A stretch of 32,000 bases of DNA from an uncultured Mycoplasmatota bacterium. Lineage in GTDB: Bacteria > Bacillota_I > Bacilli_A > RF39 > UBA660. How positions within the stretch are numbered: the stretch's first letter is position 1; each line of letters opens with the position of its first letter. The DNA lies in NCBI GenBank assembly GCA_900548695.1, contig URLC01000001.1:239577-271576 (forward strand). Direction: 5' to 3'. A program made the translations under genes and the position numbers. Below are positions 17,034-32,000 of the stretch, piece by piece. The notes beneath the pieces were generated by a model, which saw only the letters and a program-made list of their open reading frames with translations, searched no databases and was not told the DNA's origin.

Positions 17034-17372
17034 ATGAAAAAGTTATTACTAGTCTTTTTCCTTAGTATTATTTTACTTTCTGGATGTGGTAAGTATGGGG
17101 AAGAAGATGTTGTTTCAGATTTTAGTAAAAAAATTAAAGATGCAAAAAGTTATTTTGTGGAGGGAAATTTAGAACTTGTAAATAATGATGATGTATATAA
17201 TTATGATGTTGAAGTAGCTTTTAAGGCTGATAATTTTTATCGTGTTAGTTTAACTAATACTGCTAATGATCATACGCAAGTTATTTTGAAGAATAGTGAT
17301 GGGGTATATGTTATGACACACAAAAGTACACAACTTTTAAAATCAAATAAGTTTGAGGTTATATCAATTTAA
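17034..17372 (+). pseudogene. Lipoprotein (LolA-like/DUF4367-like N-terminus), apparently truncated by the island insertion
   Basis: Lipobox LLSGC. The conserved-looking sequence runs to ...VILKNSDGVYVMT, then an unrelated 17-aa tail and a stop, directly abutting mobile-element genes. Truncation is judged from the 112-aa length against my expectation for the family, so it is inference. Confidence 0.45.
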
Positions 17373-17391
17373 TTAGTATCTTATAAACACT

Positions 17392-17423
17392 AGAATATGT
17401 TAAACGCATATTCTTTTTATTTT
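17392..17423 (+). terminator. Hairpin + T-tract just inside the island's left end (terminator; an oriT inverted repeat cannot be excluded)
   Basis: AGAATATG-ttaaacg-CATATTCT followed by TTTTTATTTT, 27 nt upstream of the relaxase gene. Confidence 0.45.
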
Positions 17424-17449
17424 GTTAAAAAAGAGAGGAGATTGATATA

Positions 17450-18745
17450 ATGAATTATGCAATATTTAGAAGTGAACCTATTATGACTATGCACGATCTA
17501 GCACAAATTGGTTCTCATAATCAAAGAGAAAAGAAAGCATACAATTCTAATCCTGATATAAGAGTTGAAGATAGCTATAAAAATTTAGAATTAGTACCAT
17601 TAAATTACAAATATGTTAAAAAATTTAAAGAGATAACAAAAGAGTATGAAAAACAACATAATGAAAAACAAAAAACTGAAAGAAAAGAAAGACAAAGAAG
17701 TTATACCCAAATGCTTAATCAATCAAGAAATTGTGTAGCAGATGAATTATTATTTACTGCTTCACCTAAATTCTTTGAAAATATGAGTAATGATCATTTA
17801 ATGAAGTGGGCAAATACTTGTATGGAGTTTGTTTATAATGATTTAGGTTATAAGAAAGAACAAATACTTCACGCGACTATTCATTTAGATGAAAAATCAC
17901 CACATATTCATTGTGTAGTAGTACCACTTGTTAAAAAATTAGATAAAAGAACTAATACTGAAAGATGGACAATATCAAAAAAGCAATTTATAAAAGATAA
18001 AATACATCTATCTCAATTACAAGATAAGTATCACGAACGATTAACTGAAAAAGGATTTGATTTAGAAAGAGGTATTAAAGGAAGTGGTAGAGAACATTTA
18101 AAAACAAAAGAATTAAAGAAAACAACCAGATATTATGAAAATAAAGTGGAAAATATTAATAAAAATTTAGAACAAGCCATAAGCGATTTAAATGATAAAA
18201 TGAAATCTAGTAAAAATACTATTTTTGGTAATGAATATATTAAGGTTAAAAACGAAACCTTTGAATCTATGAATAATGTTATTAAAGAAACTAAAAAAGT
18301 ATTAGAATTTCAACCTAAAATAGAACAATTATTTAATGAAGTAAAAACATTTACTAAAAGTCATCAAATACTAGAAAAAGAAAATACAAATTTAAAAAAA
18401 GAAGTTAAATCTCTTACTACTAGAAATCAAACCTTGACTGATGAAAATAATAAATTAAGAACCTATATTGAAGCAATATTAGAAGCAATTAAAAAATTTT
18501 TTAGAAAGATATTACAATTTGGTAATGAAAAGGCAAAAGACGAAACAACTCTTGAAGTTAAAGATTATTATGATAATAATGATTTTGATATGAATGATGT
18601 AATTAAAATATCTAGAGGAACAACTAAACAAGATGAATTATTTGATTATGTAGAGGCACCAGATTATTTAAAAACAAGAGTTAAGGATATAGATGAATTA
18701 GAAAAAGATTATGAGAAATCTGATGACTTTGATTTAAGTAGATAA
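17450..18745 (+). CDS. mob: MobV-family (Pre/Mob) plasmid-recombination/relaxase protein
   Basis: Motif I HNQR (HxxR). Motif III HLDEKSPHIH (HxDExxPHxH). Long coiled-coil C-terminal half. RBS agaggag. Confidence 0.85.
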   Translation: MNYAIFRSEPIMTMHDLAQIGSHNQREKKAYNSNPDIRVEDSYKNLELVPLNYKYVKKFKEITKEYEKQHNEKQKTERKERQRSYTQMLNQSRNCVADELLFTASPKFFENMSNDHLMKWANTCMEFVYNDLGYKKEQILHATIHLDEKSPHIHCVVVPLVKKLDKRTNTERWTISKKQFIKDKIHLSQLQDKYHERLTEKGFDLERGIKGSGREHLKTKELKKTTRYYENKVENINKNLEQAISDLNDKMKSSKNTIFGNEYIKVKNETFESMNNVIKETKKVLEFQPKIEQLFNEVKTFTKSHQILEKENTNLKKEVKSLTTRNQTLTDENNKLRTYIEAILEAIKKFFRKILQFGNEKAKDETTLEVKDYYDNNDFDMNDVIKISRGTTKQDELFDYVEAPDYLKTRVKDIDELEKDYEKSDDFDLSR

Positions 18746-18920
18746 AAAGATAAAAAATAGTATTGATTTTTTTACTTTTTAGAGTGATAAATATAAGTAC
18801 AGAAAAACGAGATTTAACCCTATTAAATCGCCTATATTGGAGTTTTAATGTAAGGTTTAATATCTTATCTGTATCTTAAAATAAATTGCTTTAAATGGCA
18901 AAAAAAGAAAGGATGATATT

Positions 18921-19316
18921 ATGTTATTAAGTAATAATACTAAAAATGTTATAACATTAGTTAATATGGTAGATAAGTTAAATGATATTGATAAAGTTAG
19001 ATTAGCAATAAATTTATTTGAAGATTTAGGATTTGTACCAAATTATAATGTTGATAATTTTATTAAGTTATTTCAAGAAGTATTATTAATACTTGATCCT
19101 AACTCTAAAAAGTTAATCACCAACTTTGCTAAATATAATAATCTACTATTTATTTCAGCAAAGTATATGGAATTATCATTATTGGAAAAACAAAAGTTTT
19201 CTGTTGAAATTTTATTTAATATTTTTCAATATGATTTTAATAATAATGAAATTAATATTAAAGTTAATTATCAATTAAATGTATATGACTATTATTATTC
19301 ATTAAATATAATATAA
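18921..19316 (+). CDS. Hypothetical protein
   Basis: ORF with RBS aaaggatg. No recognisable motifs. Confidence 0.4.
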   Translation: MLLSNNTKNVITLVNMVDKLNDIDKVRLAINLFEDLGFVPNYNVDNFIKLFQEVLLILDPNSKKLITNFAKYNNLLFISAKYMELSLLEKQKFSVEILFNIFQYDFNNNEINIKVNYQLNVYDYYYSLNII

Positions 19317-19355
19317 AAGCGAGAATATGTCATTTTTATAGCATACTCTCGCTTT
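19316..19355. terminator. Bidirectional terminator between convergent genes
   Basis: AAAGCGAGA (19316-19324) pairs with TCTCGCTTT (19347-19355), with partially paired inner arms. Confidence 0.5.
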
Positions 19356-19805
19356 TTATCTATTAATTTTAGAATTATTCGTTCTGCCAACTACCCAATC
19401 CATTGATACATTATAGGTTTTACATATATAGTATAAATTCGTTGTGTTAATTAAATAGTTACCTGTTTCATAACCACTATAAGTAGTTTGTGAAATTTTG
19501 CAATCATCAGATAATTTTTGTTGGGAAATTCCTAATTTGTTTCTTAATTCTTTTAGTTTTTTACTTATTTTAATTTTGTCAGTTGTAAATTTCCCATATT
19601 TAATATTATTTCTTATTAAACCACATACGAAATCCAATGAATAATCATACATATTACAAAATTTAATAAGTTTTGGTAATGGTATAGAGTCATGGGCAGT
19701 TTCCCAAGAGCGAACAGCTGAATCTGATACTCCAAATATATAACCAAGTTCAGCTTGTGTCATCTCTAATTCTTCTCTACAATATCTTATATTATTATCA
19801 AACAT
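19356..19805 (-). CDS. Transcriptional regulator with two tandem XRE/Cro-C1 HTH domains
   Basis: MTQAELGYIFGVSDSAVRSWE and ISQQKLSDDCKISQTTYSGYETG. Start placed at ATG 19805 (RBS ggtga). Confidence 0.8.
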   Translation of the reverse strand: MFDNNIRYCREELEMTQAELGYIFGVSDSAVRSWETAHDSIPLPKLIKFCNMYDYSLDFVCGLIRNNIKYGKFTTDKIKISKKLKELRNKLGISQQKLSDDCKISQTTYSGYETGNYLINTTNLYYICKTYNVSMDWVVGRTNNSKINR

Positions 19806-19913
19806 AGTTATCACCAATAATATTTTCCCATTAAATATTAATTTAACTAAAAAACCGAATACTATTCGTTGAAAATATGTTATAATAATAAAGTAAAGAA
19901 AAAGGAGCTAGAT

Positions 19914-20402
19914 ATGAAAAAAGAAAATTTAAATGAATATGTAAAAAAAATATCAGAAATTTTAGATGACAAAATTAAAATTATTACCTCAATCAAATAT
20001 TATTATGATTTAGAAGAACTTACTTCTTCATTAAATAACTTATCTAATGAAGAAGTAGAAAATGTATTAGAACAATTAATTAATGCAAAATTAGAAGAAA
20101 TACAGAAAAGTAGTAAGGTAGATAAATTTAGAGAAAATAATAGATTAGTTGATGATGTAACTGAATTTTTTTATGATAATAAAGAAGAAAATGGGACTAT
20201 TTTTGAAGAAGGCAGTTGTATAGCGTCTGATTTGATTTTAAAAGTAATTGGTATAAATGGTAGAAAGATTAAATTACCTGTAAAAATTTCATATGTAAAA
20301 GAATATTGTATAAGTAATTTGATTGAGGAAAAAAATATTAGAAAAACATTATTGTGGATAGTTTTAGAACTATCAGTTGTAAGTTATTTTTTAAACAATT
20401 AA
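19914..20402 (+). CDS. Hypothetical protein with a C-terminal TM helix
   Basis: Start at ATG 19914 (RBS aaggag). C-terminal TLLWIVLELSVVSYFL. Confidence 0.45.
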   Translation: MKKENLNEYVKKISEILDDKIKIITSIKYYYDLEELTSSLNNLSNEEVENVLEQLINAKLEEIQKSSKVDKFRENNRLVDDVTEFFYDNKEENGTIFEEGSCIASDLILKVIGINGRKIKLPVKISYVKEYCISNLIEEKNIRKTLLWIVLELSVVSYFLNN

Positions 20403-20524
20403 AAATAAAATATATAAGTAGTAGTTAGCAGTACCTAAATCTACCTTTTTAAGACACTTCTAATACTATGGAAGTGCTTTATATTGTAATTAAGTTATAT
20501 TTATATAGAAAAGAGCGTGATTTG

Positions 20525-21112
20525 ATGTTACAAGTTAGTAGAACCAACAATCTTAAAGTTCCAAAAACATTAGAAAATACTATTGATAATTTAAATAGTG
20601 TTGATGACAAAGTTGCAGTAAAACAAGCTCTGGCAACAGCAAATAATCAAAAATTTAATAAGAATAAAGTAAAAGAAAATATTGAAAAAGATGGTGAATT
20701 AGAAAGAATTGAAAAGATTCCATTTAATGCAAACGATTTAATGGTTATTACAGTTGTAAAAAAATTAGGAGCTTATATAATTGCAGTTACTGAAAAATCT
20801 CCTGCTAAATATAGAGGTGTGTTTGTTAATCGCATGCAAAATTTATCATTAGAAATATTAGAGTTGCTTTTACAAGCAAATTTTGTAAGAATAGATTGCT
20901 TAGATAATAAAAAAAAGAGAGAAGAATATCAAAAGGATGCAATAGTAAAGTTAAAAATGCTAGGATATATTTCAATGGTAGCAGAAAATTCAAATTGCAT
21001 TTTATCTAGGCAATTTAAACAAATCTCTATTCAAATTGGTGAATCTATTAACTTAATAGCTGCATGGAAGAAAAGCGACGATTCTAGATGGAACAGTCGT
21101 ACAAATAATTAA
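20525..21112 (+). CDS. avd: Avd-like DGR accessory protein (four-helix-bundle type) with an N-terminal extension
   Basis: Position is immediately 5' of the TR. The C-terminal ~125 aa follow the Avd pattern (SPAKYRGVFVNRMQNLSLEILELLLQAN ... LSRQFKQISIQIGESINLIAAWKKSD). The ATG at 20468 sits inside a hairpin, so I prefer 20525. The assignment rests on pattern memory, not a search. Confidence 0.5.
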   Translation: MLQVSRTNNLKVPKTLENTIDNLNSVDDKVAVKQALATANNQKFNKNKVKENIEKDGELERIEKIPFNANDLMVITVVKKLGAYIIAVTEKSPAKYRGVFVNRMQNLSLEILELLLQANFVRIDCLDNKKKREEYQKDAIVKLKMLGYISMVAENSNCILSRQFKQISIQIGESINLIAAWKKSDDSRWNSRTNN

Positions 21113-21156
21113 AGGATTTTAAACCGAAAGGTTTTTAATTAAGTAAATAATTTATT

Positions 21157-21482
21157 CTAGCGGCATTGCTAGTTTTGCGCCTTTGGCGCAGGGCTTTGTC
21201 TTTGTCCGCGCGGTCAATAAGAATGGTAATAGGAACAACAAATATAGATACAAACGCAATGGTGTTGTTCGCCCAGATTTGCTTTTGAAGAGATTATAAA
21301 ATCTAAAAAACAGGTCAGAGAAATATATTTTAAGTAAAATATATCAGAACTTTAAAGCAAAGGAATTATTTACTTTTCTAACCGCTATAATAGTGCGGTG
21401 GATAGATTTTAGTGCTCACACCAACAACGATATGTATGTATTTTTGAAGGTTAAAAAGGGGCACTTTTTTGGTGGTGATTAT
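21157..21482 (+). ncRNA. DGR template RNA region: two 5' GC-rich hairpins, the TR, and a ~200-nt structured spacer running up to the RT start
   Basis: Hairpins CTAGC-ggcatt-GCTAG (21157-21172) and TGCGCC-ttt-GGCGCA (21176-21190). TR at 21203-21282. Spacer hairpins ATATATTTT-aagt-AAAATATAT (21323-21344) and ACCGC-tataatagt-GCGGT. Possible long-range pairing CACCAA/TTGGTG. Transcript ends are not determined. Confidence 0.45.
21203..21282 (+). repeat. DGR template repeat (TR)
   Basis: 80-bp match to 22807-22886. All 14 mismatches are at A in this copy. Non-coding and locally GC-rich in an AT-rich genome. Confidence 0.92.
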
Positions 21483-22511
21483 ATGAATTTAGAAAATATA
21501 TTTAGCTTTGAAAACTTATATGATGCACATAAAAAATGTAGAAAATCAAAACAACATAAAGGTGAAGTTATAAGATTTGAAGTAAATATTTCAGAGAATA
21601 TTTATAAATTACAAAAAGAAATAATATCAAGGAAATATAAAGTAGGAAAATATAAGGAATTTATAATATATGAACCAAAAGAAAGATTAATACAAGCTCT
21701 TCCATATAGAGATAGAATTGTATTAAGATGTTTTTGCGATAATGTTTTAATTCCAAAGATTGAAAAAAAACTAATAAATGATAATGTTGCTTGTAGAAAA
21801 GGCAAAGGAACAAAATATGGAATGGATAGATTGAAATATTTTTTGCAAAAAGAATATTTTAAGAATAATGATAATAAAGTCTATTATTTGAAATGTGATA
21901 TTCGCAAATATTTTCCTAGCATTAACCATAATATTTTAATAAATAATCTAAAAAGGATTGACTTTACAGGTGATGAATTTTGGTTTATAAAAAAAATTAT
22001 AAATGAACAACCTGATAATTTAGAAAGAGGGTTAGCATTAGGTAATCAATCAAGTCAATGGTTTGCTTTATACTATCTTGATAAAATTGATAGATTGATC
22101 AAAGAAGAATTGCAAATTAAAAGTTATGTAAGATATATGGATGATTTTATTCTACTTCATCGTGATAAAAAGTATTTACAATATTGTTTAGAAAAAATAA
22201 ATAATGTTTGTATTGAAAAATTAGATTTGGAACTTAATCAAAAAACACAAATAGGACTTGCATATAATGGAATTGATTTTTTAGGTTTTAATCATATTTT
22301 AACCAATAGTGGTAAGGTTATTAGAAAACTTAGGTTTTCATCTAAGCAGAGAATGAGAAAACATATTAAAACCATAAGAAAACTTAAAGATAAATCCATA
22401 ATTGATGAAGAGTATGTTGGTATGAGAATTAACGCTTTTAAAGCACATTTAAAACATTCTAATGAAAAGAGTGTGGACAAATTATTATCCAATTTAGATA
22501 AAAAAATATAA
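21483..22511 (+). CDS. DGR-type reverse transcriptase
   Basis: Start at ATG 21483 (MNLENIFSFENLYDAHKKC...). Motif LGNQSSQ (22038-22058) is the DGR-RT [I/L]GxxxSQ signature. Catalytic YMDD at 22134-22145. No maturase or endonuclease domains. Confidence 0.9.
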   Translation: MNLENIFSFENLYDAHKKCRKSKQHKGEVIRFEVNISENIYKLQKEIISRKYKVGKYKEFIIYEPKERLIQALPYRDRIVLRCFCDNVLIPKIEKKLINDNVACRKGKGTKYGMDRLKYFLQKEYFKNNDNKVYYLKCDIRKYFPSINHNILINNLKRIDFTGDEFWFIKKIINEQPDNLERGLALGNQSSQWFALYYLDKIDRLIKEELQIKSYVRYMDDFILLHRDKKYLQYCLEKINNVCIEKLDLELNQKTQIGLAYNGIDFLGFNHILTNSGKVIRKLRFSSKQRMRKHIKTIRKLKDKSIIDEEYVGMRINAFKAHLKHSNEKSVDKLLSNLDKKI

Positions 22512-22576
22512 AATTCGCAAAAATAGTAAGAAAAAATGATTTCATATGGTAAAATATAGATGTGGTGATGATAAAA

Positions 22577-24499
22577 ATGAATAATCAAGATTTAACTTTA
22601 TTGTCGGAAGGACAAATTTGGGGTAATGATAAAGAATCTCAATTAGAAGTAATAAGAAAGTATGGAACAAAAGCTGCAATCACAGATTTATGTGTATTGA
22701 CAGGTAGCTATTTATGCGAAGATACAGATTATAATATTGATGAAGATAGTTCTTTAAAAGGCAGAACTAGTTGGTTTTGGACTAGATCTGATGATAACGA
22801 TAATGATGTCCGCGCGGTCCGTAAGTCTGGTAATAGGGGCCTCGAATATAGTTACACTCGCGATGGTGTTGTTCGCCCAGCTTTGCAATCTTCTGTAATT
22901 TTTTCTCAAATCTCCCCGAACAGAGTGAGGGGATACAACGGAACTGAAGAAGTAGAATATGGAGAATATCCACAATATGCTGCTGATTCAAGAATGCAAA
23001 GTATATTAGAATCAGAATATAATAGGGGAATGAATAAAACTGGAAGAAGTTATACATTTGATTCAGTAAAATATGATGATTATGATACAGGATTCAAACC
23101 AGTAACTTATGAAGAATATGAATATCAAGGAAAGAGATATATTCGTATAAGAGCAAATTCTGATTTTGGTGGAAATAAATTTAAACTTTCAAATGGTGTT
23201 GAATATAGAGATGGCGATTGTGTTTGGCTAGAAGTATCGCCTGTAAAATGGTTAATTGATGATAGAACAGGAATATTAGTTTCAAAATTAGGGTTAGTTT
23301 CTGGAATAAGATTTCTTGATAGAAATCATAATTATAAAGGTGATTTTAGTAGAACAGAAATGAAGGAATATCTTGATAGATATATGATACGCGATTTGAC
23401 TCAAACAGCAACATTTACTCGTATTCAAGATATGACACCAGAAGAAAAAACTCAATTTGAAGAAGAAAGAAAACAAGCTGAAAAAAGAAGAAATCCTTAT
23501 GGTTTAAAATTTGGACAAGTTAGTGAAGAAGAAATTATTAAGGGTGCAATAGAAAGTGGTATAGCAGTATTCTTGCATGGCCCTTCATCAGAAGGTAAAT
23601 CTGCAAGGGTAAAACAAATAGATCCTGATTGTGTAATTATTTATCTAAGAAATGCGACACCAGAAAGTTTAAATGGTAAAAGTGTTTACAATCAAGCAAC
23701 AGGTGAGATGATTGATGTTAAGCCAAGTTGGTTAAAAAAATTAGAAGAAAAATGCGAAAAAGAGCCAGATAGATTTCATATTGTATTTTTAGATGAAATT
23801 ACAAATGCACTACCAAGTATTCAAGGTATAGCATTTAATATAGTATTAGATAGAGAAGTTAATGGTATTTGGAAATTACCAGATAATGCAAGAATTGTTG
23901 CAGCAGGAAATGATATGAAAGATTCATTAGCGGCAAATCAATTAGCAGAACCATTATTTAATAGATTTGCTCATGTTTATATTAAAACAACTGCTGAAAG
24001 TTGGTTAAAATGGGCAAGTGAACATAATATACACCCTGCTATTTATTCATATATTGCTTATAAAAAAGGCGAAACATTAAGAAGTAAATATGATGGTGAA
24101 AAACCTAATGCAGATCCAAGAAAATGGGAAATGGCTTCTAAAATGTTATACGCAACAGGAAGTCCAGAAATGTTAAGAGCATTAGTAGGAGAGGATATAA
24201 CAAGAGAATTTGTACAATTTTGTAATCAACAAGTTATAACGCTAGATGATGTAATAAATGAAAATTATACCCAAAGAGACATACAAGCATTAAATACAGC
24301 AGAAAGATATGCGACAACTATGGGATTATCACAAGTTGATGATAACAACTTAGAAAAAGTAAGAGGTTTTGTTACAGGATTAGGAGCAGAGTTTGGGGCT
24401 ATTTTTGATGCTTTATGGACACATGGCGATGAAAGTAAATTAGAAAGACTTGCAGAAGTAAAACTTGCTGAAATGTCAGAAGGAGGTATAAGAAGATAA
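22577..24499 (+). CDS. DGR variable (target) protein: an N-terminal CLec/DUF6273-like ligand-binding domain carrying the VR, fused to a MoxR/AAA_5-type AAA+ ATPase
   Basis: Probable start is ATG 22577 (RBS ggtga; the ORF track starts at GTG 22562). FLLS-like LTLLSE, WFWTRS and GVVRPAL motifs flank the VR (codons 78-104). Walker A GPSSEGKS (23580-23603), Walker B IVFLDEI, sensor-1 VAAGN, NRF arginine. No signal peptide or TM helix. Confidence 0.85.
   Translation: MNNQDLTLLSEGQIWGNDKESQLEVIRKYGTKAAITDLCVLTGSYLCEDTDYNIDEDSSLKGRTSWFWTRSDDNDNDVRAVRKSGNRGLEYSYTRDGVVRPALQSSVIFSQISPNRVRGYNGTEEVEYGEYPQYAADSRMQSILESEYNRGMNKTGRSYTFDSVKYDDYDTGFKPVTYEEYEYQGKRYIRIRANSDFGGNKFKLSNGVEYRDGDCVWLEVSPVKWLIDDRTGILVSKLGLVSGIRFLDRNHNYKGDFSRTEMKEYLDRYMIRDLTQTATFTRIQDMTPEEKTQFEEERKQAEKRRNPYGLKFGQVSEEEIIKGAIESGIAVFLHGPSSEGKSARVKQIDPDCVIIYLRNATPESLNGKSVYNQATGEMIDVKPSWLKKLEEKCEKEPDRFHIVFLDEITNALPSIQGIAFNIVLDREVNGIWKLPDNARIVAAGNDMKDSLAANQLAEPLFNRFAHVYIKTTAESWLKWASEHNIHPAIYSYIAYKKGETLRSKYDGEKPNADPRKWEMASKMLYATGSPEMLRALVGEDITREFVQFCNQQVITLDDVINENYTQRDIQALNTAERYATTMGLSQVDDNNLEKVRGFVTGLGAEFGAIFDALWTHGDESKLERLAEVKLAEMSEGGIRR
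22807..22886 (+). repeat. DGR variable repeat (VR)
   Basis: Cognate of the TR. 9 codons differ: N->R, N->S, N->G, N->L, K->E, R->S, K->T, N->D, D->A relative to the TR-encoded sequence. Confidence 0.92.
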
Positions 24500-24891
24500 T
24501 GGGAGATAAGAAAGAAATATTACTATCATATATAAGAGTAAATGTTGCACCAATTTTAGTTGATTTTATATTTGGTAAAGATATAAATGGTGCTGTTGTA
24601 TTACCTGCCAATGTTGATGTTAAAGAGTTAAATGGTCATTATGATGGAACTGATTTTATGCCACCAAAATGGCTTAGTGAAATATTAAGTACAAATGCAA
24701 GTAAAATTTTAGTGATTGATAAAATTGATGCAATAGCAAAAGAAGAACAATTAAAATTCTGTGAATTGTTAGAACATAGAAAAATATCTACATTTGAATT
24801 ACCAAAAAGTTGTGTGATAATTGTAACAGCAAACGAAATAAATAAAGATAAGATAAATGAAGAAATATTCTCATTAGTTGCACGAATTTGA
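24499..24891 (+). CDS. Small protein resembling a P-loop-less AAA+ core fragment
   Basis: The start ATG overlaps the upstream stop (TAATG), which suggests translational coupling. ILVIDKIDAI (Walker-B-like) and IIVTAN (sensor-1-like) are present, but there is no GxxxxGK[ST]. Confidence 0.55.
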   Translation: MGDKKEILLSYIRVNVAPILVDFIFGKDINGAVVLPANVDVKELNGHYDGTDFMPPKWLSEILSTNASKILVIDKIDAIAKEEQLKFCELLEHRKISTFELPKSCVIIVTANEINKDKINEEIFSLVARI

Positions 24892-24901
24892 GGTATAAGT
24901 T

Positions 24902-26482
24902 ATGAAATATGATATTGCAGCATTAAAAAGAAAAATGCTTGTTAAATATCCCTTTTTTGGGAGTGTAGTAGCAAGTGTAGATTATAAAGAAAACAAAGAT
25001 ATACCAACCGCAGGTACAGATGGAGAAACAATTTACTATAATCCTAAATATTTAGAAAGTTTAAGTGTTGAAGAACAAACTTTTATATTTGCTCATGAAG
25101 TATGTCATATTGCATTTAATCATATCTTAAGAAGTGAAGGCAAAGATCCAGAGTTATGGAATATTGCTACAGATGGTGTTATTAATCAGTTTTTAAAACG
25201 AGACGGATTAAAAATGGCTCTGGGGGGTGTTGATATGGCAGAAGCTATTAATTACGATGCTGAACAGTTATATGACAAACTATTACAAGAAAAACAACAA
25301 AGACAACAACAAAATGGACAAGGTAATAATCAAAGTGAACAAGGTAATCAGCAACAAAATCAACAACAAAGCAGTGGTAGTAGTCAAGGCGAAAATGGTC
25401 AACAACAATCTCAATCACAACAACAAACTGGCGATTCACAAAATCAAGAAGACCAGAAACAAGATAGTGATGCAGGACAAAGTGGAGATGAACAGCAACA
25501 ATCTCAACAACAAAATAGTTCTAATAGTGGAAACTCACAAGAACAAGATAAGCAATCCCAAGAACAAAGCGGTGGTGACTCTGGAAAAGATTTACAAGAA
25601 GAAGATAAATCAAAGCAAGATGTTGGACATGATACTCATAGTATGTGGGAGCAAGCAGTTAAAAAGCACAAAGAGCAGCAAGAAAAATCTGATAAAAAAG
25701 AGAGCTTATTAGATAAACTTTTAGGAAAAGATGCAAAAGAAAAAGAAAAGAATGAACTAGAAAAGAAACAAGAAGAACTTGAGAGCATGGGAGAAAAAGA
25801 TGCTTTTAAGAAAAATCTTGAAGATAAGAAAAAGCAACTTGAAGAATTAAAAGAAGCAATTTCTAAACAAGCATCACAAGCAGGAACTTCAACAAATAGA
25901 GATGTTAGAATAGTTAATGATATTGGTACTGCAAAACCAATAGTTGATTGGCGATATGTTTTGAGAGAAGCAATTAAATATGATGTAGATTGGTCATATA
26001 AAAATGCTACATTAGAAGATGGAGTTGTTACTGCTAATTTAGAAGAGCAACCAATGCCAGAAACTGAAATTGTTCTTGATACAAGTGGTTCAATAAATGA
26101 AGTATTATTAAAGAACTTTTTAAGAGAATGTAAGAATATATTACAACATACTAAATTAAAAGTAGGATGTTTTGATACAGAATTTTATGGATTTTATGAA
26201 ATTAGAACAGAAGAAGATATAGAAAATATGCGATTTGAAGGTGGTGGAGGAACTGATTTTGATGTTGCTGTAGGTGCTTTTTCAAGAAGAGTAGAAAATA
26301 AAATAATATTTACTGATGGAGAAGCTTCAATGCCAGATATGCCACTTGATGCAATATGGATAGTATTTGGTGGAGAAAGAATTAATCCGAAAGGTGGGAA
26401 AGTGATTCACATTACACCTGAACAATTAGACAGACTATATTCATATGAAATGAATATAAAATCAAAGGGAAAAACAAGATAG
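24902..26482 (+). CDS. Putative Zn-metallopeptidase (DUF2201_N-like, HExxH) - Q/S/N/E-rich disordered linker - coiled coil - VWA-like domain protein
   Basis: HEVCH at 25094-25108. Low-complexity Q-rich stretch at aa 129-240. K/E-rich heptad-like stretch at aa 250-325. MIDAS-like DTSGS at 26078-26092. VWA proteins are the classical partners of MoxR-class ATPases. Confidence 0.8.
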   Translation: MKYDIAALKRKMLVKYPFFGSVVASVDYKENKDIPTAGTDGETIYYNPKYLESLSVEEQTFIFAHEVCHIAFNHILRSEGKDPELWNIATDGVINQFLKRDGLKMALGGVDMAEAINYDAEQLYDKLLQEKQQRQQQNGQGNNQSEQGNQQQNQQQSSGSSQGENGQQQSQSQQQTGDSQNQEDQKQDSDAGQSGDEQQQSQQQNSSNSGNSQEQDKQSQEQSGGDSGKDLQEEDKSKQDVGHDTHSMWEQAVKKHKEQQEKSDKKESLLDKLLGKDAKEKEKNELEKKQEELESMGEKDAFKKNLEDKKKQLEELKEAISKQASQAGTSTNRDVRIVNDIGTAKPIVDWRYVLREAIKYDVDWSYKNATLEDGVVTANLEEQPMPETEIVLDTSGSINEVLLKNFLRECKNILQHTKLKVGCFDTEFYGFYEIRTEEDIENMRFEGGGGTDFDVAVGAFSRRVENKIIFTDGEASMPDMPLDAIWIVFGGERINPKGGKVIHITPEQLDRLYSYEMNIKSKGKTR

Positions 26483-26536
26483 ACAATTTATGAAATATAA
26501 AATAATCTCTATATCTAATTAAAATTCCATAAAAAA

Positions 26537-26675
26537 CTATCTTTAAGACAAGATAGTAACACACTACCAAGATGGACAAGCCATCTAGGAATAGTGTGCA
26601 AAGGGAGAACCCTTTTGAAACCCCATTTAAGCAACATACCACAAACTAATCGTAAGTGGTATTGTTGCCTTTTTA
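26537..26675 (+). ncRNA. Candidate structured RNA / structured 3' UTR downstream of the VWA gene
   Basis: Four consecutive stem-loops. (1) CTATCTT/AAGATAG. (2) Nested CACACTA...TAGTGTG enclosing AGATGG/CCATCT. (3) AAGGG-agaa-CCCTT. (4) A terminal 12-13-bp terminator hairpin. Confidence 0.3.
26631..26675 (+). terminator. Intrinsic terminator ending the DGR/AAA+/VWA transcription unit
   Basis: GCAACATACCAC (26631-26642) pairs with GTGGTATTGTTGC (26656-26668) with one bulge, followed by CTTTTTATTT. Confidence 0.65.
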
Positions 26676-26761
26676 TTTAAATCAAGTTTAAATAAAAAGA
26701 AGAATGCTATCGCCAATTTCATTGCTAAAGCAACAAAACTTGCCACGCATTCTTATATGAA

Positions 26762-26810
26762 AAATAGCCTAATACCTAATCTAACGAAAAGGTAAAAGGC
26801 TATTTTTTTT
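26762..26810. terminator. Bidirectional terminator
   Basis: AAATAGCCT...AGGCTATTT with inner ACCT/AGGT pairing. A-run on the left and T8 on the right. Lies 3' of the minus-strand gene 26814-27242. Confidence 0.5.
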
Positions 26811-26813
26811 GTA

Positions 26814-27242
26814 TTATTTATTATCTTTTAATAATTTAATAGTATCTTTTTTAGCATTCCATATTGATAGATAATTAAATAATACAAATTCTATTGTCAT
26901 AATAAAGTATCCGATTATGACATAGTTGTTTTTCATTACTTCATTATTAAATTGATTAAAAAATGCAATTATTAAAAGTAAACTACCATAAAACACAACT
27001 AATAATGTTGTACTATCATCAAAACCTCTCCTAATAGTTTTTGATTTATTTTTATCAACATCTAATCCTAATTTGCTCCAAGCATTAAGATCTAACAATA
27101 CACCACACATAAGAAACATACTAGCAACCCAAAACATATTCTTAAAATAATCAGTTGCAATAGTTTGTGTTAATACAAAACTTACTATAACAAATATACA
27201 TAATAGTATAACTAAAATATTTAATATTTTTCTATTTCGCAT
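26814..27242 (-). CDS. Hypothetical four-TM membrane protein
   Basis: Hydrophobic segments throughout. Its start overlaps the 3' end of the upstream XRE gene, so the two are likely co-transcribed. Confidence 0.55.
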   Translation of the reverse strand: MRNRKILNILVILLCIFVIVSFVLTQTIATDYFKNMFWVASMFLMCGVLLDLNAWSKLGLDVDKNKSKTIRRGFDDSTTLLVVFYGSLLLIIAFFNQFNNEVMKNNYVIIGYFIMTIEFVLFNYLSIWNAKKDTIKLLKDNK

Positions 27243-27732
27243 TTCTATTTCTCTCCTTTACTTTTAAACTTTGAATTAAGTTTATTATTTCTTGTTGCGT
27301 ATTAATTTGATAATTTGTATCTTCAATAGTGTGTAGTAATAAATCTTTTTCTCTTTCTAATATGTTTTTATCTTTTAATTTTTCTTCACAAGATAAAACT
27401 AATTTTTCTAAATTTTGTTTACTACCTAAAACATTAATTTCTGCCTCATTTAATTCATTTCCTTTTAAATTGGAATAGTAATCTTTAATAAAAGGATTTA
27501 ATGGACTAACTTCAATACCTAATCCCATTTTATACATTAAATCATTATAATTAACATCAATATATTTACTTATCTTTCTTAATATTTTAGGACTAGGATC
27601 TCTTTCTCCTGCTTCTATTTTAGATAAACCAGAACTATTAATTCCAGCAAGTTTTGCAAGTTGTCTTTGAGATAGATTTTTTTCTTCTCTAGCTTCGGCA
27701 ATTACTTCACCAATAGTTTTATCACTAGACAT
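27232..27732 (-). CDS. XRE-family HTH regulator with a coiled-coil C-terminal half (repressor-like)
   Basis: LSQRQLAKLAGINSSGLSKIEAGER. Start placed at ATG 27732 (RBS gaggtga). Confidence 0.8.
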   Translation of the reverse strand: MSSDKTIGEVIAEAREEKNLSQRQLAKLAGINSSGLSKIEAGERDPSPKILRKISKYIDVNYNDLMYKMGLGIEVSPLNPFIKDYYSNLKGNELNEAEINVLGSKQNLEKLVLSCEEKLKDKNILEREKDLLLHTIEDTNYQINTQQEIINLIQSLKVKERNRNAK

Positions 27733-27752
27733 TTTTTTCACCTCACACATTA

Positions 27753-27781
27753 ATCATACACCAAACGAGTACAAAAGTCAA
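27753..27781 (-). promoter_or_regulatory. Promoter for the XRE-membrane operon
   Basis: On the minus strand: TTGACT, 17 nt, TATGAT. Confidence 0.5.
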
Positions 27782-27810
27782 CAAAAGTACAAAATTTGAA
27801 TAAAAAGGTA

Positions 27811-27840
27811 TTGACAGGTTAGTATTTACTATGTTAAGAT
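27811..27840 (+). promoter_or_regulatory. Divergent promoter for the rightward wHTH genes
   Basis: TTGACA (27811-27816), 18 nt, TAAGAT, with TG at -15/-14. GTAC-containing repeats flank it: AGTACAAAAGT, AAAAGTACAAAA and AGTACAGAAGTACA. Confidence 0.5.
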
Positions 27841-27911
27841 TAATTTGTCAGTGAGTACAGAAGTACACAATAAAACAACTATTGAATACAGGAAGGGAGG
27901 AAACCAAATGT

Positions 27912-28178
27912 ATGCCAAAGAACAAACAACTAGAATTAATTAATCCAAAGATATGGAAAGACAAGAATATAAAGTTTGAAACTAAACTTATATACAAAAT
28001 ACTTTGTGCAGAACAATCACATAGAAGTAAGTTCACAAGTATAAGTATAGGTAGAGTTCAAAATCACTTAAGTATAACAAATGTTGGATTCAAAAAGAAC
28101 TTACAAATATTAGAAGATAATAAATATATAAAGTTCATTGAATATAGCAAAGGATTATACACATACGAGTTTTGTTAG
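27912..28178 (+). CDS. Small winged-HTH-like protein
   Basis: Start at ATG 27912 (RBS gggagg). Similar layout to the 28395 ORF (...KLIYKILCAEQ...ISIGRVQNHLSITNVGFKKNLQILEDNKYIKF). Confidence 0.45.
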   Translation: MPKNKQLELINPKIWKDKNIKFETKLIYKILCAEQSHRSKFTSISIGRVQNHLSITNVGFKKNLQILEDNKYIKFIEYSKGLYTYEFC

Positions 28179-28334
28179 AAAAGATTAAATCGCTAACAAA
28201 TAAAGGTTCAGTAAATGTTCGCAGATTTATATTAGAACCCAGTCTATAAGACTAAAACACTTTAATCCAAGAGACAGGATTTAAAATAAGGTCTCTGGGT
28301 TAGTATTGTCTTTTTGTAGTTTTATATCAGTATG

Positions 28335-28362
28335 ACTTGTAAGATGTTTTACAAGTTTTTTT
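28335..28362 (+). terminator. Intrinsic terminator between the two wHTH genes
   Basis: ACTTGTAA-gatgtt-TTACAAGT followed by TTTTTT. Confidence 0.65.
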
Positions 28363-28394
28363 GTTTCTAAAAATAAGGAAAGGAGGATGATAAT

Positions 28395-28676
28395 ATGACA
28401 GATATAAGTAATTTAAAATATGTACAAGTACCTATGATAGTTCTATTAGATGAAGAATTATCTTCTACTTCTAAACTATTAATGGGATTAATTACTACTT
28501 TAACTATGCAAGAGGGTTTTTGTTATGCAAGTAATAAGTATCTAAGTACTATTATGAAAGTATCAAAGAGAACTATTACAAGTTGCATAACTTCATTAAA
28601 AAGAAAAAAATATATTAAAGTAGAAAATGAACCTAATATACGAAGAATATATTTAGCAAATATCTTCCATAGTTAG
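28395..28676 (+). CDS. Winged-HTH (HTH_36-like) protein, as found in N-terminal domains of element replication/regulatory proteins
   Basis: RBS aaggagg. YVQVPMIVLLDEELSSTSKLLMGLI...CYASNKYLSTIMKVSKRTITSCITSLKRKKYI. Confidence 0.5.
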   Translation: MTDISNLKYVQVPMIVLLDEELSSTSKLLMGLITTLTMQEGFCYASNKYLSTIMKVSKRTITSCITSLKRKKYIKVENEPNIRRIYLANIFHS

Positions 28677-28818
28677 TAGCATTATCTTGCTATATGTAAT
28701 AGCAAGAATCTTCTAACAGAATAAATAATATTAATAAATAATTATAATAAATAATATAAATTTAAAATTATTTTAATAATTTAAATAACTAAATAAATTA
28801 AAATGAAAGGAGCAAAAA

Positions 28819-29238
28819 ATGGAAATTGATTTAAATGAGATAATAATATCTGGAACTATAAATAATGTAACAGATAATAATAAAGACTATATTAAATTTG
28901 GTTTAACTACTTTAAAGTATGATAAAAGAAAAGTATATTCAAGTTTAAATATTAATCGAAATCTTTATACAATCTATAAAGATTTTTTTGTTAAAGGAAC
29001 TAAAGTATTTATTAAAGGTTATCTTAACTCTTATATTACAAACAATAATATACAAAGTTTTATTACTGTAATAGATATTGCTGATAATCACAAAGAACTA
29101 ATAAATGGTAAAAGTGGACCTCATACACGAATTGATCCAGATGGCGTTCCTGTTTGGAATGGTAAAAGAGAAGAATCTATTCCACCAACCAAAGAAGAAT
29201 TAAAAGAAATGAAAGAACTACTAAAAGAGTTTGAATAA
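28819..29238 (+). CDS. Possible SSB-like OB-fold protein
   Basis: RBS aaaggag. The N-terminal NEIIISGTI...FGL...VFIKGYL pattern resembles an SSB OB-fold. It lacks the canonical acidic D-D-D-I-P-F tail. Confidence 0.35.
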   Translation: MEIDLNEIIISGTINNVTDNNKDYIKFGLTTLKYDKRKVYSSLNINRNLYTIYKDFFVKGTKVFIKGYLNSYITNNNIQSFITVIDIADNHKELINGKSGPHTRIDPDGVPVWNGKREESIPPTKEELKEMKELLKEFE

Positions 29239-29371
29239 AAAAGAAGAAAGGATTGAATGTAATATGTTAGAAAAAACAGAAAATTAAGACAAAGGAGGTA
29301 TTTAATGAAGATAGACAAACTTATACAAAATAATATTAATTTAGGTGCATATACATTTATAGAGGTGCCCT

Positions 29372-29527
29372 ATGGAAAAAGAATATAAAGTAAATAATAT
29401 TTTTAATGAAAATGGAATAACACTTAATGAATTAATAAGTAATTTTTTAGCATCTTTTCTAGATAAAGAATTTAATTTATACGAAAATAATGGTATAATA
29501 AATACCGATATAATCTCGAACTTATAG
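29372..29527 (+). CDS. Unannotated 51-aa ORF immediately upstream of the recombinase gene
   Basis: My own translation: MEKEYKVNNIFNENGITLNELISNFLASFLDKEFNLYENNGIINTDIISNL. RBS-like agaggtg 5 nt upstream. Below the ORF-track size cutoff. Confidence 0.3.
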   Translation: MEKEYKVNNIFNENGITLNELISNFLASFLDKEFNLYENNGIINTDIISNL

Positions 29528-29539
29528 ATTGGAGTAGAA

Positions 29540-31129
29540 ATGGTAACAGACACAACCTATAAGGTAGGAATATATTTAAGATTATCTAGAGAAGATGAAA
29601 GGTTAGGTGAGAGTGGTAGTATCTCTACACAAAGAGATTTGCTTTTAAATTATATTAGAGATAATGATTTATTATTTGTAGATGAATATATAGATGATGG
29701 TGTATCTGGAACAACTTTTGATAGAGTAGGATTTAATCGTATGATTAAAGACTGCGAAGAAAAGAAAATAAATATGATTATAACTAAAGATACATCAAGA
29801 TTAGGTAGAGACCATATTGAGTTTGGTTATTATGTAGAAAGATATTTTCCAGAACATAACATTAGATATGTAGCAGTTAATGATGGGGTAGATACTTTTA
29901 AAAGAGATAGTTCAGCAAATGATATGTTAGTATTTAAAAGTGCTTTTAATGATATGTATGTTAAAGATATATCAAATAAACTCCGAAGTTCTTTATATAC
30001 TAAAAAACGAAATGGTTTATTTGTTGGAGCATACGCTCCTTATGGCTATAAAAAGAATGAAGAAGATAAGCACAAACTTGAAATTGATGAAGAATCTGCT
30101 AATGTGGTTAGAAGAATATTTGATATGTTTACAAGTGGAGATAGTTTAAGCAAGATATGTGATACGCTAACTTGTGAACATATACCAACACCAAGTATGC
30201 AAAAAAATATGAAATTAGGACAAGACAATGTTCATTATGGTGTTTGGGCAACGAGGACAGTTAATGATATTCTAAAAAATCCAACTTATATTGGAAATTT
30301 AACACAATGTCGCCAAAGGAAAGTTAATTACAAATCTAAAAAAAGAGTTCATAATAAAGAAAATGATTGGATTATATCAGTTGGTGCAGTAGAACCCATA
30401 ATTGCTAAAGAAACATTTGAACTTGCCGAAGAAATGTTTAAGAGTAATAAAAATCGTGGCAAAGGTAATGGCATAACTGATAAACTTTTACTTCGTGGTT
30501 TAATATATTGTAAAGATTGTAAGCATACGATTGGATTTAGAGAACATAAACAACAAACTAAAAAATATGGAGAGGTTAGCCGAATTTATGGTAATTGTAA
30601 TTATTGGGCTAAAAGAAAAAAACAAAATGTATGCACACCACATTCTATTAAATATCAAATTATAGAAAATATAGTTTTAGATAATTTACGAAAAATGGCA
30701 AAAAAATACCTAGATGAAAAAACTCTTGAGAGTATATTAAAAACAAATGATAGAATCAAAAAGAAAAAAGATAGTATTAAAGGAGAAATATTTAGATTAG
30801 AGACGGCAATCGAAAATGCTAATAAAAAAATAGATATTTGCTACAATGATAAATTAGAGGGAAATATAACTTTAGAAATGTATAAGAGAACTTACAACAA
30901 CTTGACTCTAGAGATTAATGAATCAAAGAAAAAGAAACTAGAATATGAAAGAACTCTATATAATTTAGAAAATAATGGGGAAACTAATGATAATTTTTAT
31001 CTAGATAAAATTAAAGAATTTTTAGAGATGAAAAATCCATCTCGTGCATTAATTAGTTTACTAATTGATAGAATAGAGATAGATGAAGAAAAAAATATTG
31101 ATATATATTATAAGTTTAAGTTGATTTAA
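29540..31129 (+). CDS. Large serine recombinase (resolvase/invertase N-domain + recombinase domain + zinc ribbon + coiled coil)
   Basis: N-terminal VGIYLRLSREDE...SISTQRD (catalytic Ser region). ITKDTSRLGRD. Cys cluster CKDCKH...CNYW...C. C-terminal coiled coil. Confidence 0.9.
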   Translation: MVTDTTYKVGIYLRLSREDERLGESGSISTQRDLLLNYIRDNDLLFVDEYIDDGVSGTTFDRVGFNRMIKDCEEKKINMIITKDTSRLGRDHIEFGYYVERYFPEHNIRYVAVNDGVDTFKRDSSANDMLVFKSAFNDMYVKDISNKLRSSLYTKKRNGLFVGAYAPYGYKKNEEDKHKLEIDEESANVVRRIFDMFTSGDSLSKICDTLTCEHIPTPSMQKNMKLGQDNVHYGVWATRTVNDILKNPTYIGNLTQCRQRKVNYKSKKRVHNKENDWIISVGAVEPIIAKETFELAEEMFKSNKNRGKGNGITDKLLLRGLIYCKDCKHTIGFREHKQQTKKYGEVSRIYGNCNYWAKRKKQNVCTPHSIKYQIIENIVLDNLRKMAKKYLDEKTLESILKTNDRIKKKKDSIKGEIFRLETAIENANKKIDICYNDKLEGNITLEMYKRTYNNLTLEINESKKKKLEYERTLYNLENNGETNDNFYLDKIKEFLEMKNPSRALISLLIDRIEIDEEKNIDIYYKFKLI

Positions 31130-31141
31130 AGGAGGTAATAA

Positions 31142-31999
31142 ATGAGTAAAGATAAATTAGAAACAATATCAAATCTTTTTGAGGGTAATGAAATAAGAAG
31201 TATTTGGGATAATGAAAAAGAAGAATATTATTTTAGTGTTGTTGATGTTATTAGTGCATTAACTAATGCTAATATACCAAGAAATTACTGGAGCGATTTA
31301 AAAAGAAAATTAAAAGATGAAGGAAGTCAGTTGCACGAAAAAATCGTGCAACTCAAAATGAAGTCAAAAAAAGATGGAAAAAATTATTTGACTGATACTT
31401 TAGATACTAAAGGAATATTAAGATTAATTGAATCTGTTCCTAGTCCTAAAGCTGAACCTTTTAAACTTTGGCTTGCTAATTTAGGTAGCGAAAGAATAGA
31501 CGAGGTATTTGATCCTGAAATTGCTATTAACAGGGCAGTAGATTATTATAGAAAACGAGGATATAGCGATAAATGGATAAAAGACAGACTAGATGGAATC
31601 GTAGATAGAAAACAATTAACTGATGTTTGGAAAGATGGCGGTATTACTAAAAATTATGAATATGGGATACTAACAAATGAAATTTATCAAGAATGGTCTG
31701 GAATGAAAGCAAGTGAATATAAAGCATTTAAAGGACTTCGTAAAGAATCTTTAAGAGATAATATGTCCGATATAGAAGTCCTTTTGACAGACCTGGGAGA
31801 AACTGCAACAAGAGAACTTGCTAAAAAACATAAGCCTTATGGTTTAGAACAAAACAAAAAAATAGCAAGAATGGGTGGTAATACTGCTAAAGTTGCTAGA
31901 GATGACCTTGAAAGAAAATTAGGAGAATCAGTAATAACTAAAAATAATAACTTAAACTATAAATATATTGAATCGCAAGATAAAATAGAAAATAAATAA
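31142..31999 (+). CDS. Bro-N domain protein, DinD-like (DNA-damage-inducible protein D family)
   Basis: N-terminal Bro-N pattern (EIRSIWDNEKEEYYFSVVDVISAL). The C-terminal region resembles DinD (...DRKQLTDVW...GLRKESLRDNMSDIEVLL...). Assigned from memory of the family. Confidence 0.6.
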   Translation: MSKDKLETISNLFEGNEIRSIWDNEKEEYYFSVVDVISALTNANIPRNYWSDLKRKLKDEGSQLHEKIVQLKMKSKKDGKNYLTDTLDTKGILRLIESVPSPKAEPFKLWLANLGSERIDEVFDPEIAINRAVDYYRKRGYSDKWIKDRLDGIVDRKQLTDVWKDGGITKNYEYGILTNEIYQEWSGMKASEYKAFKGLRKESLRDNMSDIEVLLTDLGETATRELAKKHKPYGLEQNKKIARMGGNTAKVARDDLERKLGESVITKNNNLNYKYIESQDKIENK

Positions 32000-32000
32000 A

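Follow-up and report, generated by a model that had tools for sequence, protein, structure and literature searches.

Results

An intact diversity-generating retroelement in a Mycoplasmatota genome

The window analysed in this study is a stretch of 32,000 nucleotides (nt) from an uncultured Mycoplasmatota bacterium (GTDB lineage Bacilli_A; RF39; UBA660; GenBank assembly GCA_900548695.1, contig URLC01000001.1, positions 239,577 to 271,576 of the forward strand), numbered here from its first letter. It contains a diversity-generating retroelement (DGR) whose parts follow one another on the + strand in the order Avd-like accessory gene, template repeat (TR), structured spacer RNA, reverse transcriptase (RT) and target gene, the last of which holds the variable repeat (VR).

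The Avd-like protein has 195 residues (20525..21112, +). The mechanical open reading frame (ORF) begins at 20468, and homologues and gene calls place the probable start at the ATG at 20525. The protein matches phrog_3206 ("Avd protein of DGR") at 1.1e-13, and also Pfam bAvd (1e-4) and NCBIfam DivGenRetAVD (3.6e-5), both short of the curated cut-offs. The RT (21483..22511, +) is an uninterrupted ORF of 342 residues matching phrog_1423 at 1.3e-105 and RVT_1 at 6.5e-16, and it carries the DGR-type motif 4, LGNQSSQ (22038-22058), together with the catalytic YxDD in the form YMDD (22134-22145). An earlier reading of the DNA letters, to which we refer as the original prediction, had proposed a complete DGR here, with the TR lying between an Avd-like gene and an RT that bears these two motifs. 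Every part of that proposal is present and intact, including the RT, whose frameshift or inactivation had been named as evidence to the contrary.

The TR (21203..21282, +) is non-coding, contains 27 adenines and has the same sequence in three related loci (L082, L159 and L160). The VR (22807..22886, +) lies in frame in the target gene and covers residues 77-104 of its product. In a base-by-base alignment 66 of 80 positions are identical, and each of the 14 mismatches is an adenine in the template (21216, 21217, 21222, 21223, 21234, 21235, 21237, 21238, 21240, 21248, 21253, 21254, 21258 and 21277), so that 14 of 27 adenines and 0 of 53 other bases are changed. The bases that replace adenine in the window VR are C (5), G (5) and T (4). 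If 14 mismatches were placed at random, all of them would land on the 27 adenines with P = 1.3e-8. Identity falls to background directly beyond both ends of the pair, a repeat scan returned TR and VR as the sole long repeat pair of the window, and their conserved 3' end occurs at exactly 2 sites, with 0 expected by chance. Chance and a generic repeat family were both rejected as origins of the repeat, given this probability and the presence of only two copies in the window.

Regarding the original prediction, its alignment figures were reproduced to the last number, the abrupt end of homology on both sides and the two in-frame peptides of template and expressed copy were recovered, and the recurrence of the pair as a generic family, which it had listed as a way to fail, was not seen in the window. 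Two of its statements needed refinement. It had placed the changes mostly in AAY codons, which holds for 9 of the 14, and the TR also includes AAG, two AAA and AGA codons. It had also counted all 14 changes as hypermutation; 13 are products of mutagenesis, and the remaining one, A21277 in the TR against C22881 in the VR, is a fixed difference. It also passed over the VR's position near the N-terminus of an ATPase fusion of 640 residues, the capacity of the TR to generate stop codons, and the place of the DGR as an often-lost accessory of a wider cassette.

The adenine bias extends beyond the window. TR/VR pairs in related loci were found with an adenine-tolerant ungapped scan, as a BLAST-based scan misses pairs with heavily mutated VRs, and over 15 independent loci with intact DGRs, 165 of 171 pooled mismatches fall at adenines.

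Natural populations support a working DGR

The related loci L159 and L160, metagenome copies from separate samples sequenced in two runs of a single study, share the element; their TR is that of the window to the base, and their RT of 342 residues is intact. Of 8,778 aligned bases, 17 differ between the two loci, 16 in the VR, all at TR adenines, and one outside it. The window VR differs from those of L159, L160, L082 and L161 at template adenines in 13/13, 18/18, 14/14 and 15/15 cases, respectively, and it is unlike each of the 15 other VRs collected. The original prediction had suggested looking for VR polymorphism confined to template-adenine positions, and this is the pattern that public assemblies display. 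In addition, polymorphisms of the TR at bases other than adenine (for instance GTT or GCT at positions 21264-21266) reappear in the cognate VR, and these copied variants show that information flows from TR to VR.

The same concentration of change is apparent in the encoded proteins. In an alignment of 121 homologues, mean column entropy is 1.26 bits at residues 81-100 and approximately 0.1 elsewhere, and the homologues display 42 distinct VR peptides. Certain protein pairs are identical across the roughly 600 residues that lie outside the VR and differ at 7-9 of the 17 within it. Among close proteins, with fewer than five differences outside the VR, the mean is 0.62 VR differences of 15.

One lineage provides a natural negative control. 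In loci L156-L158 (9272-9937), L004 and L012, Avd and the TR region are kept, and the RT lacks some 240 nt of its interior and appears in the gene calls as a 187-residue fragment. A single VR allele, NKHGDRDDLFRYLRYGA, is common to 50 cluster representatives, and one protein of this lineage (P0011) is indexed in 142 collection blocks with an identical VR throughout. The frozen cassette sits in a chromosomal setting, between an ABC transporter and a gene for an AMP-binding enzyme, with IS3-type transposases nearby. Intact RTs go with diverse VRs and the damaged RT goes with a frozen VR, an association that gives indirect support to RT-dependent retrohoming. Collectively, these natural population data support the interpretation of the element as a working DGR, as far as assembled sequences can tell.

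Diversification stops at an IMH-like boundary inside the coding sequence

A set of 16 distinct VRs belonging to the 80-nt family delimits the diversified tract: 25 of the 27 adenines in the template are diversified, and all of these lie within 21216-21259, a mutagenised tract (+) in which every adenine varies in cognate VRs. The corresponding tract of the VR (22820..22863, +) comprises 13 codons within residues 82-96. The two adenines outside behave differently from the rest. A21275 is A in every VR; because it occupies the third position of a CCA (Pro) codon, where changes would be synonymous, selection on the protein cannot account for its constancy. A21277 is C in all 16 VRs, and the same difference, GAT in the TR against GCT in the VR, is found in relatives whose RT is only about 50% identical. 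The sole locus without C at this VR base, L112, is decayed and has T. At the protein level, residue 102 of the target is Ala in 98 homologues and Val in 23, and never Asp or Gly.

The invariant 3' end of the VR with its fixed C22881 (22864..22886, +) encodes GVVRPAL, and since the VR is internal to the gene, this boundary falls inside coding sequence. Few DGRs are built in this manner: Wu et al. found N-terminal VRs in 3 of 372 and noted the constraint that a boundary in the coding sequence imposes (PMC5758913). The A21277/C22881 pair is a fixed asymmetry comparable to the initiation of mutagenic homing sites (IMH/IMH*) of the DGR of Bordetella phage BPP-1, and it probably has the same function. 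The natural variants show that only the 25 adenines of 21216-21259 are effectively transferred in mutated form, with the GC-rich 3' end behaving as a directional boundary.

The 13 diversifiable codons are six AAY, AAG, AGG, two AAA, TAT, AGA and TAC, from which about 1.4e13 peptides are possible. Residue 91, specified by TAT in the TR, is precisely Y, C, F or S among homologues, matching the expectation for TNT. Four of the codons (AAG, the two AAA and AGA) are stop-capable, unlike the classic all-AAY design.

Stop codons within the VR were observed in two distant relatives with intact DGRs, L130 (TR 8611-8690, VR 10213-10292) and L151 (TR 8613-8692, VR 10204-10283). Their TRs contain in-frame TAA, their VRs have TGA or TAG at the TAA codons, and the assembled target ORF is interrupted solely within the VR. 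Reassignment of stop codons was rejected, as the remaining genes have no internal stops and use TGG for Trp. These stops could represent DGR-driven ON/OFF switching or null alleles. In two other loci (L001:5344-5405 and L097:10231-10311) the VR differs by 1 nt in length from the TR and the target is frameshifted in the assemblies, which may reflect a real indel or a consensus artefact arising from a mixed VR population.

A conserved spacer RNA follows the template repeat

The 200 nt between TR and RT are better conserved than the flanking genes. RNAalifold predicted 57 pairs in this region, 21 of them with compensatory changes. We scored four helices, P1 to P4 (30 pairs), on nine sequences, and all 270 resulting cells pair; eight pairs show changes in both strands of the stem. 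The observed values were not attained in any of 500 shuffles, and slid controls paired at 35-60%.

P1 (21278..21361, +) is a candidate template:primer duplex in which the 3' end of the TR, TTTGCTTT (21278-21285), pairs with spacer sequence AAAGCAAA (21354-21361). All eight of its pairs are kept in the nine sequences, including two double changes (UA to CG and GC to AU) in L117, L130 and L151, where the duplex reads TTCAC/GTGAA. In L006, which was not a seed sequence, it reads TTTGCTCT/AGAGCAAA and contributes one more compensatory pair. P2 (21291..21304, +) is a hairpin of 5 bp with two compensatory pairs and 0 broken. P3 (21323..21344, +), a 9-bp stem closed by a tetraloop, is a candidate Avd-binding stem-loop that keeps 9 of 9 pairs in the nine sequences, two of them compensatory. 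P4 (21377..21402, +; TCTAACCGC...GCGGTGGA) is the spacer element of widest conservation, retained also in L005 and L006, in which the RT is 51-52% identical.

In L001-L003 and L012, a covariance model of P1-P4 (R1) matched once in each locus, at a position immediately following the TR. The unseeded loci L005 and L006 were matched as well, at E values of about 1e-15 to 1e-16, L007 and L010 gave weak matches, and loci with an RT less than 45% identical gave none. An Rfam search of the TR and spacer region returned nothing.

Two further structures flank this core. Just ahead of the RT ribosome-binding site, a long hairpin, P5 (21411..21470, +; AGTGCTC/GGGCACT), is followed by a T-run; it has seven pairs, five of them compensatory in 2-4 sequences (RNAalifold columns 294-300/346-352), and might act as a terminator or attenuator, or else form the 3' end of the DGR RNA. 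Immediately 5' of the TR lies a terminator-like stem-loop with the core GCGCC-TTT-GGCGC (21171..21195, +), whose stem is kept by compensatory changes in related loci, for example as GCACC/GGTGC in L134. This stem-loop is probably part of the DGR RNA or an attenuator.

These features can be read against the ribonucleoprotein of BPP-1, in which the 3' end of the TR and the spacer form a template:primer duplex (TR117-129:Sp47-56) with the initiating template base just 5' of it, and against the proposed Avd-binding stem-loops that lie just downstream of the TR in 207 DGRs, most commonly with 9 bp and a tetraloop (Handa et al., bioRxiv 10.1101/2023.10.23.563531). The spacer RNA of the window matches this published model.

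The target couples a variable N-terminal domain to a P-loop ATPase

The target gene (22577..24499, +) encodes 640 residues, or 643 if counted from the ATG at 22568. Its product consists of an N-terminal VR domain (residues 1 to about 112), a beta-rich domain (about 115-280) and a P-loop ATPase (about 319-608) with the sequence motifs Walker A, GPSSEGKS (23579-23602, +), and Walker B, IVFLDE (23780-23797, +). The VR is therefore near the N-terminus, and not at the C-terminus as in most DGR targets. The ATPase matches phrog_1297, a phage ATPase family, at 2.1e-47, and AAA_5 is matched by 7 of 131 homologues, at or below the cut-off. The target itself has no Pfam match and no PDB sequence match, domain searches found no Ig, Fn3 or tail domains in it, and inspection by eye, with no predictor run, revealed no signal peptide or hydrophobic N-terminal segment.

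An AlphaFold2 model of residues 1-300, built on an alignment of 131 sequences, has a pLDDT of 92. It depicts the N-terminal domain as a small alpha/beta fold, with the VR forming a beta-hairpin plus loop and the beta-rich domain following. N-terminal models (pLDDT 92 and 83) had no Foldseek match at E < 0.05, and a DUF6273 protein appeared at E = 0.42. The C-terminal part of DUF6273 is matched by 20 of the 131 homologues, and Fib_succ_major by one. DUF6273 is reported to be a C-type-lectin-like, DGR-targeted domain that has the VR at its C-terminal edge in targets of gut phages (PMC10743442, PMC11792537), and these homologue matches suggest that the VR domain of the target is distantly related to it.

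The N-terminal two-domain module constitutes a family of its own, with 2,882 clusters (50% identity, E <= 1e-3), and is found by itself, as tandem arrays, in duplicate within a single protein, or joined to an ATPase as in the window. One chromosomal locus (L162:4554-8242) has three tandem paralogues of the module that are devoid of the ATPase (392, 397 and 413 residues). The TR/VR scan also revealed duplicated target genes, as long near-identical repeats, in L105, L108, L113, L124, L125, L129, L136 and L138.

The DGR is an accessory of a more widely conserved cassette

Two + strand genes follow the target. ORF130 (24499..24891) encodes a degenerate AAA-like fragment of 130 residues that has no Walker A motif and a weak AAA match (0.0035), and it accompanies the target in nearly all of 75 genome loci. 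The next gene (24902..26482) encodes a DUF2201 protein of 526 residues, composed of a DUF2201_N metallopeptidase domain (3.4e-38) with the motif HEVCH (25094-25108, +), a Q/S-rich linker and a DUF2201 VWA-like domain (5.2e-13); the protein also matches phrog_1314 at 1.4e-67. The linker (25227-25720) is a low-complexity region rich in Q, S, N and E, with imperfect direct repeats (D5, D10), and its length differs between loci.

The target, ORF130 and DUF2201 genes occur as a cassette in 75 species-level genomes, mostly metagenome-assembled genomes of uncultured gut Bacilli, and some carriers are Clostridia, such as Zhenpiania hominis; strain BX12 of this cultured species (L149) has the cassette and no DGR. 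Intact Avd and RT are present in about 13 of the 75 loci. Several more retain pieces of the RT that differ in length, and many are reduced to the final tens of bases ahead of the target. The fact that few of the 75 loci keep an intact DGR indicates that the DGR is an accessory, often lost, of a more conserved three-gene cassette. In L005, in which the RT is 52% identical, the order Avd-TR-RT-target-VWA is the same, and in L006 the DGR targets a version that lacks the ATPase. L002 (783-3423) carries an orphan DGR consisting of a homologue of the ORF upstream of avd (ORF177), Avd, TR, spacer RNA and an RT 86% identical to that of the window; the target is lost, and beyond RT residue ~340 there are unrelated minus-strand genes, pilin-like and glycosyltransferase-like.

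That upstream ORF (19914..20402, +, 162-177 residues) lies directly upstream of avd in the window, where it has no family match beyond weak ones. Its homologue adjoins Avd in eight DGR-bearing genome loci (78-98% identity), as well as in L002, L159 and L160, and on co-occurrence it is a possible additional accessory gene of the DGR.

The wider surroundings contain genes typical of mobile elements: a Mob_Pre relaxase near the cassette (17450-18745), two HTH repressor-like genes on the minus strand (19356-19817 and 27232-27750), a large serine recombinase (29540-31129) and a Bro-N protein (31142 onward). This mobile-element stretch (17034-32000) adjoins ordinary chromosomal genes, namely those for RNase R, SmpB, transfer-messenger RNA (tmRNA), PFL and CdaA. 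Just before the relaxase, a lipoprotein-like ORF of 112 residues (17034-17372) looks truncated and may mark an insertion site. The smpB gene (2319-2759) and a full-length tmRNA gene (7117-7496, minus strand; 168 bits) are about 4 kb apart, and a tRNA gene (14115-14187) lies upstream of cdaA. Megablast of 20400-26500 against phage and plasmid collections gave no match, and the 2.9 million contigs of IMG/VR contained no relative of the target.

Discussion

A DGR that diversifies an N-terminal domain

We find it very probable that the locus described here is a canonical DGR that diversifies the N-terminal domain of its target by a mechanism resembling that of BPP-1; the part of this interpretation that concerns an ATPase-linked sensor is less certain. 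By analogy with BPP-1, the avd-TR-spacer-RT transcript would fold so that TR 21278-21285 pairs with spacer 21354-21361, approximately 70 nt downstream, and the structured RNA would be bound by RT and Avd. Synthesis of cDNA would begin beside the P1 duplex, probably next to A21277, the site of the fixed asymmetry, and would proceed 5' through the TR with misincorporation at adenines. The mutated cDNA would then take the place of the homologous VR in the gene that directly follows the RT. The expected outcome is up to about 1e13 variants of a beta-hairpin and loop of 13 codons at the C-terminal edge of the N-terminal domain.

Several observations weigh against parts of this interpretation. Activity in the window genome itself is deduced from the assemblies of sister copies rather than from reads of that genome. 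No hairpin or cruciform follows the VR, as 22870-22960 has no stable structure (z = 0.9), unlike in BPP-1; a distant relative, L005, has a GC-rich hairpin of 6 bp with a 4-nt loop past its VR, and not all DGRs possess such a structure. The four stop-capable codons of the TR imply that part of the mutagenic events should inactivate the gene. As for the protein, the window target itself matches neither DUF6273 nor Fib_succ_major, Foldseek found no significant match, to a C-type lectin or to any other fold, for the model of residues 1-300 in PDB or BFVD, nor for the isolated N-terminal domain (residues 1-118) in PDB, and PDB sequence searches with the whole target or with a profile of the ATPase domain returned no relative. 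PADLOC assigned no defence family to the target, ORF130 or the VWA protein.

What the diversified protein does is the less certain part. The architecture suggests that the N-terminal domain could act as a ligand sensor on a cytoplasmic P-loop/AAA+-type ATPase that works with the VWA-metallopeptidase. Together they would form a recognition module inside the cell that can be reprogrammed, most plausibly for conflict with phages or competing mobile elements. In its fullest form, which we put forward as a tentative proposal, the DGR would set the specificity of an intracellular ATP-driven machine: the variable domain, carried on a MoxR-like ATPase, would recognise changing invader proteins, and the ATPase would engage the VWA-metallopeptidase, either remodelling or destroying the invader or setting off a response. 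As PADLOC gave no family and the ATPase has no PDB relative, a sensor or conflict function is something we infer only.

The same mechanism of diversification might instead serve a mobile element or phage, with the target acting as an ATP-driven chaperone or remodelling module, or as a particle-associated binding protein like the "tentaclins" of gut phages. This possibility, which we hold with similar reserve, draws on the matches of the ATPase and the VWA-peptidase to phage families (phrog_1297 and phrog_1314), on the position of the window cassette amid relaxase, HTH repressor-like, serine recombinase and Bro-N genes, and on the precedent of DUF6273 targets with N-terminal VRs in gut phages. 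It has to contend with the failure to find any relative among 2.9 million IMG/VR contigs or in phage and plasmid collections, with the location of the cassette among ordinary chromosomal genes in other lineages, and with a target protein in which neither Ig-like or tail domains nor, by eye, a signal peptide were found. The intracellular sensor role and the mobile-element or phage role are about equally open.

Both roles presuppose a canonical DGR that works. We consider it improbable that the element, intact in appearance, is now silent in the window genome and that its TR/VR differences record past activity. Decay of the DGR is common around this cassette, given that about 13 of 75 loci retain intact Avd and RT, that many have RT remnants and that the VR is frozen in one lineage whose RT is damaged, and close proteins mostly share their VR. 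The window element, however, has an intact RT, Avd, TR and spacer RNA, its TR is the same as in the copies that were diversified between samples, and its VR is distinct from the 15 others collected. Recombination or gene conversion among copies under diversifying selection, with the TR as a pseudogene-like fragment of the target, finds some precedent in the tandem target paralogues of L105, L113, L124 and L125 and in the tandem arrays of the N-terminal module, and is nevertheless barely conceivable, as it cannot explain differences that map to template adenines, non-adenine TR variants copied to the VR or variation that ceases upon RT deletion, and the window has a single target copy and two copies of the repeat.

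Because the mechanism is that of a textbook DGR, our view of hypermutation is unchanged. The value of the locus lies in how cleanly nature has arranged the comparison, with sister copies that differ almost solely at template adenines and an RT-deletion lineage in which the VR is frozen, and in the graded loss of the DGR around a conserved cassette of ATPase, small ORF and VWA-peptidase in 75 species. The locus adds a further case to the few N-terminal VRs on record and ties a DUF6273-like DGR scaffold to an apparently intracellular ATPase in uncultured gut Bacilli, an unusual type of DGR target. If the sensor proposal were true, DGR-tuned conflict systems would exist outside multicellular bacteria as well, and gut Bacilli would possess a mobile, DGR-reprogrammable module for defence or counter-defence. 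Stochastic ON/OFF switching could arise in addition from stop-capable TR codons and from the TAA codons that the TRs of L130 and L151 contain. Finally, the compact 80-nt TR and the covariation-supported spacer RNA are of potential use in engineering.

Comparison with known systems

The window element resembles the DGR of BPP-1 in its Avd, TR and RT genes (avd-TR-brt in BPP-1, where the target is mtd), in the adenine-specific transfer from TR to VR, in a GC-rich 3' end that does not vary and has an asymmetry between TR and VR resembling that of IMH and IMH*, and in a duplex between the TR 3' end and the spacer with a stem-loop just past the TR. The two differ in that the target of the window lies downstream of the RT, whereas that of BPP-1 lies upstream, and in that the VR of the window is near the N-terminus of an ATPase fusion of 640 residues and that of BPP-1 is at the C-terminus of a tail-fibre protein. 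Moreover, the TR of the window is short (80 nt) and has stop-capable codons, no hairpin follows the VR, and the element has no recognisable phage around it.

With the DUF6273 targets of gut phages, including the tentaclins (PMC10743442; PMC11792537; bioRxiv 10.1101/2024.10.15.618418), the target shares a VR at the C-terminal edge of an N-terminal domain, in the window one of probable DUF6273 type, a VR modelled as a beta-hairpin plus loops, a gut setting and the persistence of targets after loss of the DGR. In contrast to tentaclins, the domain in the window is only distantly DUF6273-like. An unassigned beta-rich domain and a P-loop ATPase come after it in place of Ig-like domains, and the cassette has neither a phage context nor relatives in IMG/VR.

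Closer in presumed function are the ternary vWA-MoxR (VMAP) systems of cyanobacteria and gammaproteobacteria (PMC7159879; PMC10907252), which likewise combine a DGR-variable binding domain, an ATPase (of AAA+ type there, AAA+-like in the window) and a vWA protein, are probably intracellular and include a peptidase domain. The vWA partner is represented in the window by the DUF2201 VWA-like domain described above. No VMAP protein was identified, with PADLOC empty and no dedicated VMAP model applied; the third gene is the AAA-like fragment of 130 residues. In the vWA-MoxR systems the variable C-type-lectin domain is C-terminal, either fused to vWA or alone, MoxR is a separate protein and a VMAP protein is present, whereas the window target has its variable domain at the N-terminus, joined to the ATPase itself. 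The vWA protein of the window is of the DUF2201 type with its own metallopeptidase, unlike those of the vWA-MoxR systems, and the hosts of the latter are multicellular bacteria, as opposed to uncultured gut Bacilli.

Fusions of variable domains to ATPases have precedents of their own, in the C-type-lectin-AAA ATPase fusions of candidate phyla radiation (CPR) bacteria, as outlined in PMC10907252 from work of 2017, and in the Midasin-like UVR4 targets (PMC5758913). Compared by their published descriptions, these proteins appear to belong to another RT clade and VR class, and they share with the target described here the principle of a DGR-variable domain fused to an AAA-type ATPase.

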